From Comamonadaceae bacterium (GTDB taxonomy: Bacteria; Pseudomonadota; Gammaproteobacteria; Burkholderiales; Burkholderiaceae_C), in assembly GCA_027486555.1 (NCBI GenBank), contig JAIXOX010000135.1:2802-66801 (forward strand): 64,000 nucleotides of DNA. The letters are read 5' to 3'. Made by a program: the position numbers and the translations under genes. The notes below the pieces were generated by a model that searched no databases, was not told the origin of the DNA, and saw only the letters and a list, made by a program, of their open reading frames with translations. Shown here piece after piece: positions 43,890 to 48,965 of this stretch; within the stretch, counting starts at the first letter, position 1, and each line of letters begins with the position of its first letter.

Positions 43890-45362
43890 TCAAAGCAAGA
43901 CGATGTCATACTGCTCCGGCCCCATGGAAGACTCGACTTGCAAGGAGATCGGTTTGGAAATGAAGTCTGACAGACCTGCCAAATGCTGGCTTTCTTCGTC
44001 CAGCAACAAATCGATCACCGCAGAGGTTGCCAAAATGCGAAATTCACGCGGGTTGAACTGTCGCGCTTCGCGCAATATCTCTCGCAAGATGTCATAAACC
44101 ACAGAGCGGGGCGTCTTGACAATCCCTTTGCCTTGGCAGCTTGGGCAAGGCTCACACAGCATGTGGGCCAAAGATTCTCGCGTGCGCTTGCGCGTCATCT
44201 CCAGCAAACCCAATGATGAAAAACCACCTGCCATGGTCTTGACCCGGTCTCTGGCCAATTGCTTGTGAAATTCCGCCAGCACCGCATCTTGGTGCTCAGT
44301 TCGGGCCATGTCGATGAAGTCCGCAATGATGATGCCCCCCAAATTGCGAAGGCGCAATTGCCTTGCAATGGCTTGTGCCGCTTCCAAATTGGTTTTGAAG
44401 ATCGTGTCCTCAAAATTGCGCGCCCCCACGTACCCGCCTGTGTTCACATCCACGGTGGTCAGGGCCTCGGTCTGGTCAATGATCAGGTAGCCACCCGACT
44501 TGAGCTCGACCCGACGCCCCAATGCTTTGGCAATTTCCTCATCGATGGCGTAGAGGTCAAAAATTGGCCGCTCACCCTTGTAGTGCTGCAAACGCTCAGC
44601 GGCCTTGGGCATGAACTCATGGCCAAACCCCTTCAACAATGCAAACTGCTCTTGCGAGTCAATGCGAATGCTTTGCGTGGCATCACCCACCAAATCACGC
44701 AGCACGCGTTGGAGCAATGTCAAATCCTGGTGCAGCAAAGAGGTGGGCGGCAAGCGCATCGAGGCCTCTTTGATACGGGCCCAAGTCTTGCGCAAGTAGG
44801 CAATATCGTCATGCAACTCATCGTCACTGGAGTCCTCCGCATTGGTGCGCAAAATGAAGCCGCCACCTGACGGCCCAGCCAAAGCCTGCACGCGTTTGCG
44901 CAAGGCATCGCGCTGCTCGGAAGGAATTTTTTGCGACACCCCAATGTGATCGTCTTGCGGCAAAAACACCAGATGACGCCCCGCAATGCTGATTTGCGTG
45001 GACAAGCGGGCCCCCTTGGTGCCCATGGGGTCCTTGATGACTTGCACCATGATGGGGCGGCCCTCGAACACCTGCTTTTCAATCGGCACCATCGGCTGAC
45101 CCGTTCGTGCTGCTGCTGCCTCGCCTTCGGCGTGTTTGTGCCACACGTCTGCCACATGCAAAAAGGCCGCTTTATCAAGGCCAATGTCAACAAAAGCCGA
45201 TTGCATGCCAGGCAACACACGGGCCACCTTGCCCAAGTAAACATTGCCCACCAAACCACGCTCAAGCGTGCGCTCGACGTGCAATTCCTGCACAGCACCA
45301 AACTCCACCACCGCAACACGTGTTTCCTGCGGGGACCAATTGACCAATATATCTTGTTGCAT
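43890..45362 (-). CDS. rng: Ribonuclease G
   Basis: GNVYLGKVARVLPGMQSAF, TVDVNTG, LRNLGGIIIADFIDM, EMTRKR. Confidence 0.95.
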   Translation of the reverse strand: MQQDILVNWSPQETRVAVVEFGAVQELHVERTLERGLVGNVYLGKVARVLPGMQSAFVDIGLDKAAFLHVADVWHKHAEGEAAAARTGQPMVPIEKQVFEGRPIMVQVIKDPMGTKGARLSTQISIAGRHLVFLPQDDHIGVSQKIPSEQRDALRKRVQALAGPSGGGFILRTNAEDSSDDELHDDIAYLRKTWARIKEASMRLPPTSLLHQDLTLLQRVLRDLVGDATQSIRIDSQEQFALLKGFGHEFMPKAAERLQHYKGERPIFDLYAIDEEIAKALGRRVELKSGGYLIIDQTEALTTVDVNTGGYVGARNFEDTIFKTNLEAAQAIARQLRLRNLGGIIIADFIDMARTEHQDAVLAEFHKQLARDRVKTMAGGFSSLGLLEMTRKRTRESLAHMLCEPCPSCQGKGIVKTPRSVVYDILREILREARQFNPREFRILATSAVIDLLLDEESQHLAGLSDFISKPISLQVESSMGPEQYDIVLL

Positions 45363-45470: not shown

Positions 45471-46073
45471 TCAACAGCGCACACCCAGCGAGCGCAGCAA
45501 CGCAGCGGTCTCGAAAAGCGGCAAACCCATGATGCCTGAATAACTGCCTCGAATCTGCTCGATGTGAGCAGCGGCCCTGCCCTGAACACCGTAAGCCCCG
45601 GCTTTGCCCATGGGCTCGCCCGTGGCCACATAGGCCTGGATCTGAGCGGCAGTCATGGGCGAAAAACGCACCCACGATTCGGACACCACCGCCACCCGCT
45701 GCTGGCCTTTTTGTACGGCCACAGCGGTCAACACCCGGTGGGATTGGCCCGCCAGCCGCTGGAGGATGCGCAGCGCATCGGCTTCGTCAGCCGGTTTACC
45801 CAATATGTCGCGGCCCAAGCAGACGGTGGTGTCGGCGCACAACACCGGCGCTGCGGGCAAGCCTTGGCGATTCAATCGTTGTACAGCTGCATCGAGCTTG
45901 AGGCCCGTGACACGCGCCACATAGCGCCCAGGCGCTTCTGCGCCACGCAAGGCTTCCAAGGACTCGGCGTCTTCATCAGGACCCGCCAAAAGCAGTTGGT
46001 GGGCTACGCCGATTTGGTCCAGAAGTTGGCTGCGCCTTGGGCTTTGGGAAGCCAGATAAATGAAGTCACTCAT
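45471..46073 (-). CDS. maf: Maf-family nucleoside triphosphate pyrophosphatase
   Basis: [27 protein letters not shown]. Confidence 0.93.
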
Positions 46074-46537
46074 TCTCGGTGATAAGGGTGGTTGGCGTTG
46101 ATCGACCAGGCACGGTAAAGCTGCTCGATCAAGAGCACCCGGGCCATGGCGTGGGGCAAAGTCATGTCCGACAAGCGGATGCGCTCGTGAGCAGCTTGCC
46201 GGAATTCAGGGTCCAGCCCGTCTGGGCCACCAATGACCAAAGCCACATCATCCCCCCCCAGCTGCCAACTGGTCAGGCGAGTGGCCAGGGCTTGGGTGGT
46301 CAGGTGGGTGCCGCGCTCGTCAAGCACCACAATGCGGGTGCCGCGCGCAATGGCCGCTTCAATACGCTGGCGCTCGGCCGCGTACAAGGAGGGCAGGGTT
46401 TTGGAGCCCCGTGGTTCGGTTTTCACGGCCTTGAGCTCGACTTTGAGCTCAGGCGGAAAACGTTTGGCGTAGTCGTCCCAAGCGGTTTGCGCCCAGTCGG
46501 GCACGCGCAGACCGACCGCCACGATCAGCAGCTTCAT
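46070..46537 (-). CDS. rlmH: 23S rRNA pseudouridine-1915 N3-methyltransferase
   Basis: [31 protein letters not shown]. Confidence 0.96.
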
Positions 46538-46543
46538 GCAGAA

Positions 46544-47347
46544 TCAATCGGCTTTGCGACGGGTCGCAGCTTGCACGGCCTTGCGCACTGGGGACTTTTT
46601 GGCTGCGGGTTTGGCTGCAGATTTCGCCGCAGTCTTGGTGGCTGGCTTGCCGACTGTTTTCACGGTGGGCTTGCTGGTCTTGGTGGCTGCCTTAACGGCT
46701 GTCTTTGCTGCGCTTGGAGCGCTGGTTTTCGCCCCAGTTGTCTTCGCTGCAGTTTTGGAAGCCGGTTTGGCGGCGGATTTGGCAGCAGTTTTAACCGCTT
46801 TGAGCGGCGCTTTCAATGCCGGCTTGGCTTTGGACGCGGTTTTGGATGCGGTTTTGGTTGCGGTTTTGGGCGCAGCAGTTTTGGACGTGGTGGTTTTGGC
46901 TGAAGCAGTTTTGGCGCTGGCTTTTTTTGCCACCGAATTCTTGATATGGCCTTTGACCTCAGCTGTGGCCGCCGGCTTGGGCGCACCAAACTTCAAACGC
47001 ACAGGCGTGCCACCCCAGATTTCTTCAAGGTTGTAATAAGTTCTGATGGTGGGCTGCATGATATGAACAACCGCTGGGCCACAATCCACAATGATCCATT
47101 CCCCGTTGTCTTCGCCCTCCATTCGGGGCTTGCCGAAACCGGCTTCGCGCACTTTGTCACGCACGCTGGCGGCCAGCGCTTTGGTCTGGCGGTTGGAAGT
47201 GCCTGAGGCAATGATGACTCGCTCAAACAAAGAAGACAAATGTTCGGTGTCAAACACCTGGATTTCCTGGGCCTTGACGTCTTCCAAAGCGTCCACGATG
47301 GCCCTCTGGAGTTTTTGAATGTCTTTTTTGGCTGCGATTTCTGTCAT
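46544..47347 (-). CDS. rsfS: Ribosome silencing factor RsfS fused to a ~140-aa Lys/Ala/Thr-rich histone-H1-like tail
   Basis: LEDVKA, IASGTSNRQ, WIIVDCG, YNLEEIWG; position between nadD and rlmH; tail of KTA/AAK repeats. Confidence 0.93.
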   Translation of the reverse strand: MTEIAAKKDIQKLQRAIVDALEDVKAQEIQVFDTEHLSSLFERVIIASGTSNRQTKALAASVRDKVREAGFGKPRMEGEDNGEWIIVDCGPAVVHIMQPTIRTYYNLEEIWGGTPVRLKFGAPKPAATAEVKGHIKNSVAKKASAKTASAKTTTSKTAAPKTATKTASKTASKAKPALKAPLKAVKTAAKSAAKPASKTAAKTTGAKTSAPSAAKTAVKAATKTSKPTVKTVGKPATKTAAKSAAKPAAKKSPVRKAVQAATRRKAD

Positions 47348-48036
47348 CAATGGGGCCTGTATAGGTGGTGTTCGTTTATGTAGCGCTCGACGGCGGGACT
47401 GATCAAGCCTGTCATGGCTTGCTCTGTGGCCGCCAGAACACGGATGGCCGTGGCACTGTGAGGCATCAGCGGCATGTCCAGAGAAAGAATGCGCGCTTGC
47501 AGCGTGTCAAAAAGACGGGTTGAAGTTGCGGGCTCTTGTGGGTCTTCACGCCACGCACGCACGGCCTTATCACGGCTTGCGGCACATATTATAGCGATGC
47601 GCCCGATTTCATCGATTTGATGCCATGAGGACAAAGAACGACGCTGATCATCACCGATCAATAAAAACAATTGCGCCTGAGGCCACTGGGCTTGCAGTTC
47701 ATGCAAAGTGTCCACCGTGTAACTGGGGCCAGTCCTGCTGATTTCACGGTCATCCACCACCACCTTAGGCAAATGAGCAAAGGCCAAACGGGTCATGGCC
47801 AAGCGGTGGACAGACGGTGTCAAATCGCGGGGTTTGTGCCAAGCCCTCCCCGTTGGCAACACATGCACCAGGTCCAGCCGGAGCTGTTCAATGGCCGCCT
47901 CAACCAAGGCCACATGGGCTTGGTGGGGGGGGTCAAACGCACCTCCAAAAACACCTGCTCGCTGAACAGCTTCGGCCATGGGCCTGCCGCTCTCGGTGCC
48001 CAGGGCTTGAGGATCCGGAACGGTTTCTGTAGGCAT
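47347..48036 (-). CDS. nadD: Nicotinate-nucleotide adenylyltransferase
   Basis: FGGAFDPPHQAH, SYTVDTL, IGDD, SATAIR. Confidence 0.9.
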   Translation of the reverse strand: MPTETVPDPQALGTESGRPMAEAVQRAGVFGGAFDPPHQAHVALVEAAIEQLRLDLVHVLPTGRAWHKPRDLTPSVHRLAMTRLAFAHLPKVVVDDREISRTGPSYTVDTLHELQAQWPQAQLFLLIGDDQRRSLSSWHQIDEIGRIAIICAASRDKAVRAWREDPQEPATSTRLFDTLQARILSLDMPLMPHSATAIRVLAATEQAMTGLISPAVERYINEHHLYRPH

Positions 48037-48044
48037 CAAAGGGG

Positions 48045-48965
48045 TCAAACCCAGTCCTTGGGCACGAGAAAGTGGCTGAGTAAGTGGGCTTCTGGTGTGC
48101 CAGGCTCGTCTTGGCGCTGGTACGACCAACGCACCTCGGGGGGCATGGACAGCAAGATCGACTCGGTGCGACCGCCGGACTGCAACCCAAAATGGGTGCC
48201 CCGATCCCACACCAGGTTGAACTCCACGTAGCGGCCACGACGGTAAAGCTGAAAGTCACGCTCATGTTCGCCATAGGCCAAGTCTTTGCGCCGCTGCACG
48301 ATGGGCATGTAGGCGCTGAGCAAAGCGTTGCCCACGCTTTGCATCATGGCAAAACTCTGGTCCATGCCCAGCTCTGAAAAATCGTCAAAGAAAATGCCAC
48401 CCACGCCGCGCTGCTCATGGCGGTGTTTGTTGCAAAAGTAATCGTCGCACCAAGTCTTGAAACGCGGGTGCAAAGCTTCGCCAAATGGAGACAAGGCCTC
48501 TTTGCAGGTCTGGTGGAAATGCACTGCATCTTCGTCAAAGCCGTAGTAAGGCGTCAGGTCCATGCCACCGCCAAACCAGGCCACAGGAGCCCTGCCCTCA
48601 GGCTTGGCTGCAATCATGCGAACGTTCATGTGCACGGTGGGCACATAGGGGTTGCGGGGATGGAACACCAAAGACACGCCCATGGCCTCAAATGCAGAAC
48701 CCGCCAATTCGGGGCGATGCTGCGTGGCCGATGGCGGCAGTTGTGGCCCCGTGACATGAGAAAAACCGCAACCGGCCCGCTCAAAAATGGGGCCACCCTC
48801 CAAAATTTGGGTGATGCCATTGCCCTGAAGCTTTTCACCGGGATCTTTTTTCCAAACATCGGTCAAAAAAGGCGTGCCATCCAGATCGGTCAAAGCCCCG
48901 GTGATGCGAGACTGCAAGTCCATCAGGTATTTTCTGACCGTGTCGAGTTCAAAACTGGTGCTCAT
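48045..48965 (-). CDS. hemF: Oxygen-dependent coproporphyrinogen III oxidase
   Basis: [47 protein letters not shown]. Confidence 0.96.

Follow-up and report, generated by a model that had tools for sequence, protein, structure and literature searches.

A long lysine-rich tail on the ribosome silencing factor RsfS of a Comamonadaceae bacterium and its relatives

We analyzed a 64,000-nucleotide (nt) stretch of DNA from a Comamonadaceae bacterium, a freshwater Limnohabitans (assembly GCA_027486555.1, contig JAIXOX010000135.1, positions 2,802 to 66,801 of the forward strand), referred to here as the window, which carries on its minus strand an rsfS gene for a ribosome silencing factor with a polycationic C-terminal tail. 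The source genome comprises 3.83 Mb in 150 contigs and is 92% complete. Basic tails on RsfS are the rule across the Comamonadaceae-like family to which this genome belongs, occur in sister families too, and are not peculiar to the source genome. The tailed RsfS is real, conserved, and unstudied; it is an elaborated form of a familiar factor, and appendages of this type are familiar as well.

The rsfS gene, its product, and its neighbors

The gene and the two parts of its product, with lengths in amino acids (aa), lie as follows.

46544..47347, minus strand: rsfS coding sequence, 267 codons from ATG plus a TGA stop at 46544-46546
46982..47347, minus strand: RsfS (Iojap/YbeB) domain, residues 2-123, ~122 aa, net charge -2
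46547..46981, minus strand: polycationic C-terminal tail, residues 124-268, 145 aa, net charge +35

As translated from the window, the open reading frame (ORF) is uninterrupted for 268 aa from a TTG codon (46544..47350, minus strand). The start is likely the ATG at 47347, one codon past the TTG, which gives a protein of 267 aa, because database homologues start at that Met and because the ATG overlaps the stop codon of the upstream gene nadD (TGATG), the A of the ATG doubling as part of that stop. Residue numbers for the domain as listed, the tail, and its islands are given in the 268-aa frame counted from the TTG.

By family models, predicted fold, and operon, the protein is a genuine canonical RsfS. 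A first-pass annotation, made from the sequence without database searches, had described a complete RsfS domain, and both family models bear this out: PF02410 matches residues 17-112 (E-value 3.9e-29, 101.2 bits against a cutoff of 21.6), and the equivalog model TIGR00090 matches the whole protein (106.4 bits against a cutoff of 56.9). The domain also matches the sequence of PDB entry 2ID1 (E-value 1.4e-33). The AlphaFold2 model, built from a 69-sequence alignment, has a predicted local distance difference test (pLDDT) score of 89-97 over residues 1-110 and a helix (H) and strand (E) layout of H-E-E-H-E-E-E-H-H. Foldseek matched the predicted domain to Escherichia coli RsfS on the pre-50S particle (9SS4, TMt 0.92, root mean square deviation 1.1 Å; 7BL2, TMt 0.88), to the Staphylococcus aureus 50S-RsfS complex (6SJ6, TMt 0.82), to Mycobacterium tuberculosis RsfS (4WCW, TMt 0.86), and to mitochondrial MALSU1. 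An R103-x-Y105-Y106 motif, invariant across the 69 aligned sequences, sits in the aligned C-terminal helix, and alignment offsets suggest that it is equivalent to the Tyr95/Tyr98 region of the S. aureus protein. In S. aureus, Tyr95 and Tyr98 contact Arg97 of uL14 in a cavity that includes bL19 and 23S helix H95, and the short RsfS binds uL14 via an acidic beta-sheet face at a site overlapping bridge B8 (PMC7125091). RsfS prevents subunit joining in stationary phase (PMC3400551), and in growing cells it also occurs on pre-50S particles at a late stage (PMC11851116); it is now regarded as a late 50S assembly factor as well as a silencer in starvation.

Beyond the domain, the tail includes 42 Ala, 34 Lys, 23 Thr, 13 Ser, 11 Pro, 8 Val, 3 Gly, 3 Arg, 1 Asp, and 1 Glu, so that Ala makes up 29%, Thr plus Ser 25%, Lys 23%, and Pro 8% of it, with 2 acidic residues in 145. 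The first-pass annotation had called the tail longer than the domain, which it is (145 against ~122 aa), and had counted 33 Lys, 3 Arg, and 2 acidic residues in about 140 aa, figures that exact counting from residue 129 reproduces. It had also placed 12- and 15-nt DNA repeats in this region; Tandem Repeats Finder reports a 12-nt unit with 5.0 copies at 46829-46891 and a 15-nt unit with 3.5 copies at 46863-46914. AlphaFold2 gives residues 121-267 a pLDDT of 42-57 and no secondary structure, and the tail is accordingly predicted to be disordered. The description "histone-H1-like" refers to composition and not to family membership: searched alone, the tail matches no model in Pfam at E-values up to 10, including PF07382 (Hc2) and PF00538 (linker histone), and none in NCBIfam at E-values up to 1. 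No comparable tail was found in solved chains by PDB sequence matches, and an ESM Atlas search with the tail returned low scores only (≤0.85), all to RsfS fragments. A tblastn search of the source genome with the whole tail and its conserved segments, filters off, found no second copy on another protein.

The neighbors of rsfS are the following.

47347..48210, minus strand: nadD, nicotinate-nucleotide adenylyltransferase, upstream gene (PF01467, E-value 8.5e-19)
46070..46537, minus strand: rlmH, SPOUT 23S rRNA methyltransferase, beginning 6 nt past the rsfS stop (PF02590, E-value 1.7e-46)
45471-46073, minus strand: maf, downstream operon member (PF02545, E-value 1.5e-53)
43890-45362, minus strand: rng, RNase G, downstream operon member (PF10150, E-value 1.7e-99)

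All lie on the same strand in the order nadD-rsfS-rlmH-maf-rng, of which nadD-rsfS-rlmH is the usual RsfS neighborhood, and no terminator-like site was found between rsfS and rlmH on the minus strand. The maximal nadD ORF runs for 287 aa from a GTG, and the true start probably lies inside it, because some 85 extra residues precede the cytidylyltransferase domain.

Selection on the tail and its modular layout

We aligned the codons of 13 genus members with the same architecture and took dN/dS (the ratio of nonsynonymous to synonymous substitution rates) as the mean of pairwise comparisons with the window gene. The domain has a ratio of 0.034 and the whole tail one of 0.16; within the tail, the conserved islands pooled have 0.086 and the spacers between them 0.22, with dS near saturation (1.0-1.9) and alignment inside the repeats uncertain. 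Differences in the tail at codon positions 1, 2, and 3 number 395, 194, and 756. All 76 gapped columns of the alignment fall in the tail, mostly in spacers, and none in the domain; despite them, the frame is open in every complete gene examined. Because third-position differences dominate and dN/dS is low, these substitution patterns identify the tail as translated sequence under purifying selection. With a pooled dN/dS of 0.086 at a dS of ~1.2, conservation of at least the islands as a group acts at the protein level and not solely through the start region of rlmH. Two long plus-strand ORFs opposite the tail and rlmH, at 46536-47036 (166 aa) and 46079-46903 (274 aa), were dismissed as compositional shadows and not genes, because the substitution pattern matches the minus frame; the GCN/AAR-rich coding frame yields long open frames on the opposite strand.

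Four freshwater metatranscriptome libraries yielded contigs covering the domain, rlmH, and the 3′ end of the tail; the sequencing runs contain only small shares (0.05-0.09) of the stretch. In run X13, a piece of 151 nt at 46539-46689 is identical, and a contig across the first spacer has an in-frame variant 54 nt shorter (it skips 46843-46904, with 6 nt inserted). Coming from relatives, and from libraries that may contain DNA, these contigs hint only weakly, if at all, at transcription; the interval 46704-46895, uncovered in three runs, carries no weight.

An alignment of 25 homologues from the Limnohabitans clade (82-96% identical overall) divides the tail into four islands and three spacers; the closest named homologues in public databases are annotated as ribosome silencing factor [Limnohabitans sp.]. 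The segments, with the island residues invariant in this alignment, are listed in order from the domain.

46922..46981, minus strand: island 0, the linker leaving the domain, residues 124-143, PKPxATAEVKGHIKNSVAKK; invariant E131, K133, G134, H135, I136, N138, S139, V140, A141, K142, and K143
46832..46921, minus strand: spacer 1, KTA/SKT repeats, residues 144-173, holding the 12- and 15-nt repeats and rich in insertions and deletions (indels)
46799..46831, minus strand: island 1, residues 174-184, KAKPALKAPxK; invariant K176, A178, L179, K180, A181, P182, and K184
46676..46798, minus strand: spacer 2, AAK/KTA repeats, residues 185-225
46643..46675, minus strand: island 2, residues 226-236, SKPTVKTVGKP; invariant S226, K227, P228, T229, K231, T232, V233, G234, K235, and P236
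46613..46642, minus strand: spacer 3, residues 237-246, with 0 to 20 inserted residues
46547..46612, minus strand: island 3, the C-terminus, residues 247-268, AAKPAAKKAPARKAVQAATRRKAD; invariant K251, K252, P254, R256, K257, V259, Q260, A261, R264, R265, K266, and A267

In this alignment the domain is near-invariant and the four islands match it in conservation, so that the short tandem repeats of the tail are broken up by conserved segments that are not repeats. Because conserved islands alternate with variable repeat spacers, the tail is a disordered region of the sticker-and-spacer type and not a plain homopolymer-like run, and the islands suggest that something beyond bulk charge is being maintained.

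Motifs of other kinds occur in related tails. The 21-residue sequence SLKRSNAAKKGVxEAFPSKAQ is found near-invariant in the tails of 12 of 38 other genera (z 13-16 against shuffled tails), with 2 more showing a weaker match (z ~6-8). Rhodoferax is among the carriers, and the window protein does not have the motif.

Tails carrying this motif: L034-L036, L042, L044, L046, L047, L055, L057, and L059
Tails carrying variants of it: L056 and L065

A second Limnohabitans subclade has a different invariant tail segment of 45 residues. Strings resembling KVVV or VKTVG are present in many family tails, at 55-80% of tail length; a clustered hydrophobic V-x-V element was not significant in a per-sequence shuffle test on family tails (median p 0.68; 10% below 0.05).

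Distribution of tails and comparison with known systems

Within the genus, 23 of the 24 other genomes have an RsfS match, and every one of the 19 complete genes encodes a tail (97-163 aa; 20 of 20 when the window gene is included). In three genomes (L017, L021, and L023) contigs end inside the tail-coding repeats and the annotated gene is cut short, because coding repeats of this kind break short-read assembly. We searched 300 genomes of the same GTDB family, representing a further 165 genera, and found RsfS in 296; among the family matches listed, 143 of 150 have an open frame of at least 200 aa. Forty family genes from outside the genus were fetched, the shortest deliberately included, and 38 of these encode basic tails of 48-169 aa (median 111.5 aa, median Lys fraction 0.22, median net charge +25). 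Tails are thus present in 58 of the 60 complete genes sampled from the family (48-169 aa), with a median Lys fraction of 0.22-0.23 and a median net charge of +25 to +30. A homology search from another family locus returned "ribosome silencing factor [Rhodoferax sp.]" at 224-269 aa, which identifies the family as Comamonadaceae in the usual sense, and public databases contain thousands of tailed RsfS proteins under the plain name.

Such tails also extend beyond the family. In the rest of Burkholderiales, we covered 136 genomes from 59 other GTDB families and examined every gene with an open frame of at least 200 aa (one unpublished genome, G348, is counted only as a genome without a long open frame). 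At least 16 of the 136 genomes, in 8 families, have Lys-rich tails, 74-176 aa long; the majority of the long open frames in this set reflect nothing more than read-through from upstream. Three of the eight tailed families (f10, f13, and f36) score nearest to the query. An acidic patch (…ASE.DDE…) right after the domain, followed by a basic region, is common to these three and to part of the home family, which suggests that the extension is older than the home family. The repeats of distant Burkholderiales families differ strongly (for example KKPAAKKPVAKKP, where as many as 60 of 171 aa are Lys), suggesting that those tails grew independently.

In the rest of Pseudomonadota (134 genomes), two genomes have a basic tail, and six RsfS tails are acidic or of mixed charge.

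L144: C-terminal Ala/Lys/Pro-rich tail
L143: N-terminal Lys/Ala extension of 100 aa
L139: C-terminal tail with 53 Asp/Glu in 100 aa
L149 and L150: C-terminal tails with DSETDWEA repeats, then KDK
L141, L142, and L151: C-terminal tails with zwitterionic DEAKPR or KADKPA repeats

The window protein resembles canonical RsfS (RsfA) in Pfam and TIGRFAM family, predicted fold (TMt 0.82-0.92), nadD-rsfS-rlmH gene order, and probably the R-x-Y-Y motif of the uL14-contact region. It differs in that the RsfS proteins solved or studied so far are 105-139 aa long, with little sequence beyond the domain (E. coli YbeB, 105 aa; S. aureus, 6SJ5 and 6SJ6; M. tuberculosis Rv2420c, 4WCW; Chromobacterium violaceum CV0518, 2ID1), whereas the window protein adds 145 residues of predicted disorder with a net charge of +35. 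We found no paper describing a lysine-rich, disordered, or C-terminally extended RsfS in a full-text literature search. The words "extension" and "tail" are both absent from the founding RsfA paper (PMC3400551), and in the S. aureus structure paper the C-terminus appears only as a figure label (PMC7125091).

The closest parallels in layout come from other protein families. AlgP and PhaF of Pseudomonas, with KPAA repeats, join, in a broadly similar way, a folded N-terminal domain to a disordered, repeat-encoded Lys/Ala/Pro tail of ~150 aa and variable repeat length, the net tail charges in this comparison ranging from +35 to +55 (PMC9239181). Their folded domain is a different one, however, and their partners are DNA, polyphosphate (polyP), or polyhydroxyalkanoate granules; the window tail, with KTA/AAK repeats, much Thr/Ser, 8% Pro, and islands interrupting the repeats, has no model-level similarity to them. 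Chlamydia Hc1/Hc2, Bordetella BpH1, and the C-terminal domain of eukaryotic H1 are nucleic acid-binding polycations, disordered, rich in Lys and Ala, and poor in acidic residues. Hc1/Hc2 and BpH1 (PF07382 type) and H1 are free-standing or winged-helix-linked chromatin proteins, whereas the window tail rides on a ribosome-docking domain. MALSU1 (C7orf30) and other organellar homologues (5OOL and 7O9K among human mitoribosome assembly intermediates; Trypanosoma brucei, 6YXY) do have the RsfS fold and, at the N- or C-terminus, additional sequence. Organellar RsfS extensions are targeting peptides or segments that bind L0R8F8 and the mitochondrial acyl carrier protein, not polycationic repeats, and they have no sequence relation to the window tail. 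MALSU1-type homologues act as anti-association and assembly factors of the large subunit (PMC11851116). In the bacterial DEAD-box helicases SrmB, RhlE, and DeaD, with basic C-terminal extensions, and in mycobacterial MDP1/HupB and Ku, with polycationic disordered regions, a basic tail adds largely nonspecific nucleic acid affinity to a globular domain (PMC2770661, PMC8266600, PMC3553676, PMC10810275). These proteins have other domains, and none is an anti-association factor.

Candidate partners of the tail and other basic proteins of the genome

We hypothesize, with a probability of roughly 45%, that the tail is a polyanion-binding tether that acts near the uL14 contact, on interface rRNA, and strengthens both occupancy of the 50S subunit and the block to subunit joining. 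As in E. coli and S. aureus, the RsfS domain would sit on uL14, on the side of the 50S or late pre-50S particle that faces the small subunit. Because the tail starts ~17 residues past the conserved Tyr-Tyr of the putative uL14-contact region, it would exit where phosphates of 23S rRNA crowd the surface and could run as a flexible electrostatic tether along the neighboring interface rRNA of the 23S molecule. Such a tether may let RsfS bind the large subunit more tightly and stay on it longer, and it may hinder 30S joining, sterically and electrostatically, beyond bridge B8. The islands would then make specific contacts, and the spacers would be adjustable links between them, their length drifting by repeat slippage in multiples of three. 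Unrelated lineages carry basic tails at the N- or the C-terminus of this small domain, a recurrence that speaks for a partner close to where the domain docks, and by proximity rRNA at the 50S interface appears a more likely partner than DNA or polyP.

Several points weigh against this hypothesis. The proximity argument draws solely on position in the sequence. Composition cannot tell rRNA from DNA or polyP, because AlgP and PhaF tails, Lys/Ala/Pro-rich and of similar charge, bind DNA or join polyP granules (PMC9239181). The acidic and mixed-charge tails of other Pseudomonadota cannot grip rRNA, so the C-terminus of RsfS evidently tolerates appendages of other kinds. The four islands are clade-specific as far as our alignments reach, the Limnohabitans islands being weakly recognizable in other genera (mean z 0.8-1.3 against shuffled tails). 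Finally, two family genes, both from one genus with streamlined genomes of 1.7 Mb, have no tail, so the tail is dispensable in some settings.

Instead of rRNA, the tail could bind chromosomal DNA, in which case RsfS-bound 50S subunits would be parked on the nucleoid in starvation, or RsfS itself would be stored on DNA. The composition, rich in Lys, Ala, Thr, and Pro at a net charge of +35, does resemble that of DNA-binding tails, AlgP and PhaF offer a precedent (PMC9239181), and the same genome places basic low-complexity stretches on a SWIB protein and on DksA, which are linked to DNA or transcription. We nevertheless consider a nucleoid tether unlikely: none of the family models, those for H1 and Hc2 included, matches the tail, and the domain that carries it has the ribosome as its only known partner, with rRNA as the nearest polyanion. 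The Lys content of 23% is also lower than that of H1 C-terminal domains and AlgP tails.

A disordered tail might also need no partner, serving as an entropic bristle that adds excluded volume against the 30S subunit, or adding solubility or half-life, with charge secondary. RsfS tails of opposite or mixed charge elsewhere in Pseudomonadota (L139, L149, L150, L142, and L151), the spread of tail length from 48 to 169 aa within the family, and the lack of AlphaFold2-predicted structure would all suit such a role. It becomes improbable, in our estimation, given that positive charge is tightly kept over deep divergence (median net +25 to +30, few acidic residues) and that conserved islands with a dN/dS of 0.086 are unexpected of a pure spacer.

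We rate as similarly doubtful a role in which the tail binds polyP granules, or forms coacervates with polyP or RNA, and so sequesters large subunits in a dormant depot of an oligotrophic freshwater bacterium. The case for it is purely analogical: AlgP, with a comparable tail, localizes to polyP granules and needs its C-terminal domain for granule spacing (PMC9239181), the source genome encodes ppk1 (C76:39810-40358, minus strand), and the islands and charged spacers would fit the layout of condensate-forming proteins. On the other hand, the granule proteome set ribosome-associated proteins aside as likely salt artifacts (PMC9239181), gene order does not link rsfS to ppk, and the family-wide conservation of the tail takes in many copiotrophic genera. 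A broader version, which we regard as a long shot, would make the tail a second binding module independent of uL14 and RsfS a multivalent scaffold that gathers capped 50S subunits into a polyanion-driven depot (on rRNA, nucleoid, or polyphosphate) in starved Comamonadaceae. If it existed, that depot would be a bacterial counterpart of the lysine-rich intrinsically disordered regions that organize eukaryotic ribosome biogenesis compartments, and it would represent ribosome hibernation of another kind than 100S dimers.

Neutral expansion, by which repeat slippage would have grown a tolerated, functionless tail, is already disfavored and very improbable, since the 12- and 15-nt tandem repeats, the frequent indels and strain-to-strain length differences, and the two tail-less family genomes that speak for it are set against a tail kept by 58 of the 60 genes sampled, from many genera, a dN/dS well below 1 even in spacers (0.22), conserved composition and charge, and invariant islands.

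Whichever partner applies, more than half of the window protein is a selected polycationic region of predicted disorder with conserved motifs, and Limnohabitans, Rhodoferax, and their relatives form a large, ecologically important family that uses the tailed form. Should the tail alter the affinity, release, or localization of RsfS, models of anti-association and hibernation derived from E. coli and S. aureus would not be directly transferable. The feature would be easily overlooked: Lys-dense tails give very small tryptic peptides, and their repeats break short-read assemblies.

We considered whether the tail might substitute for a missing hibernation factor, an idea that is unsupported. A short gene of the HPF/RaiA type is present, and RMF was not found in the 92% complete genome; this combination is the usual betaproteobacterial state, and the compensation idea therefore gains no support from it.

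A six-frame scan of the 3.83-Mb genome in 40-residue windows (at least 9 Lys, at least 9 Ala, at least 34 small or basic residues, and at most 2 acidic residues) ranked the RsfS tail as the longest Lys/Ala-rich, acid-poor stretch, at 150 residues against 40-48 for six others. Because the other stretches do not exceed 48 aa, the tail is not a genome-wide compositional habit. The six belong to a DksA homologue, a SWIB-domain protein, a large protein with TPR and SEC-C motifs, and three proteins without a Pfam match. The DksA homologue is 354 aa long (C88:12362-13426, plus strand), with DksA_N and zinc finger domains only at residues 239-346 and about 230 N-terminal residues of Lys/Ser/Thr/Ala-rich low complexity. 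The SWIB/MDM2-domain protein (C126:80402-80914, minus strand) has an Ala/Lys/Pro-rich N-terminal stretch of ~45 aa. A Lys-rich protein of 185 aa without a Pfam match (C76:37626-38183, plus strand) is encoded ~1.6 kb from ppk1 and could be an AlgP-like polyP or nucleoid protein. On the same contig, an 81-aa protein (C76:52237-52482, plus strand), also without a Pfam match, combines a signal-peptide-like N-terminus and a Pro/Ala-rich middle with the C-terminal sequence KKKAAKKTSKKTKKSKKKSKA.

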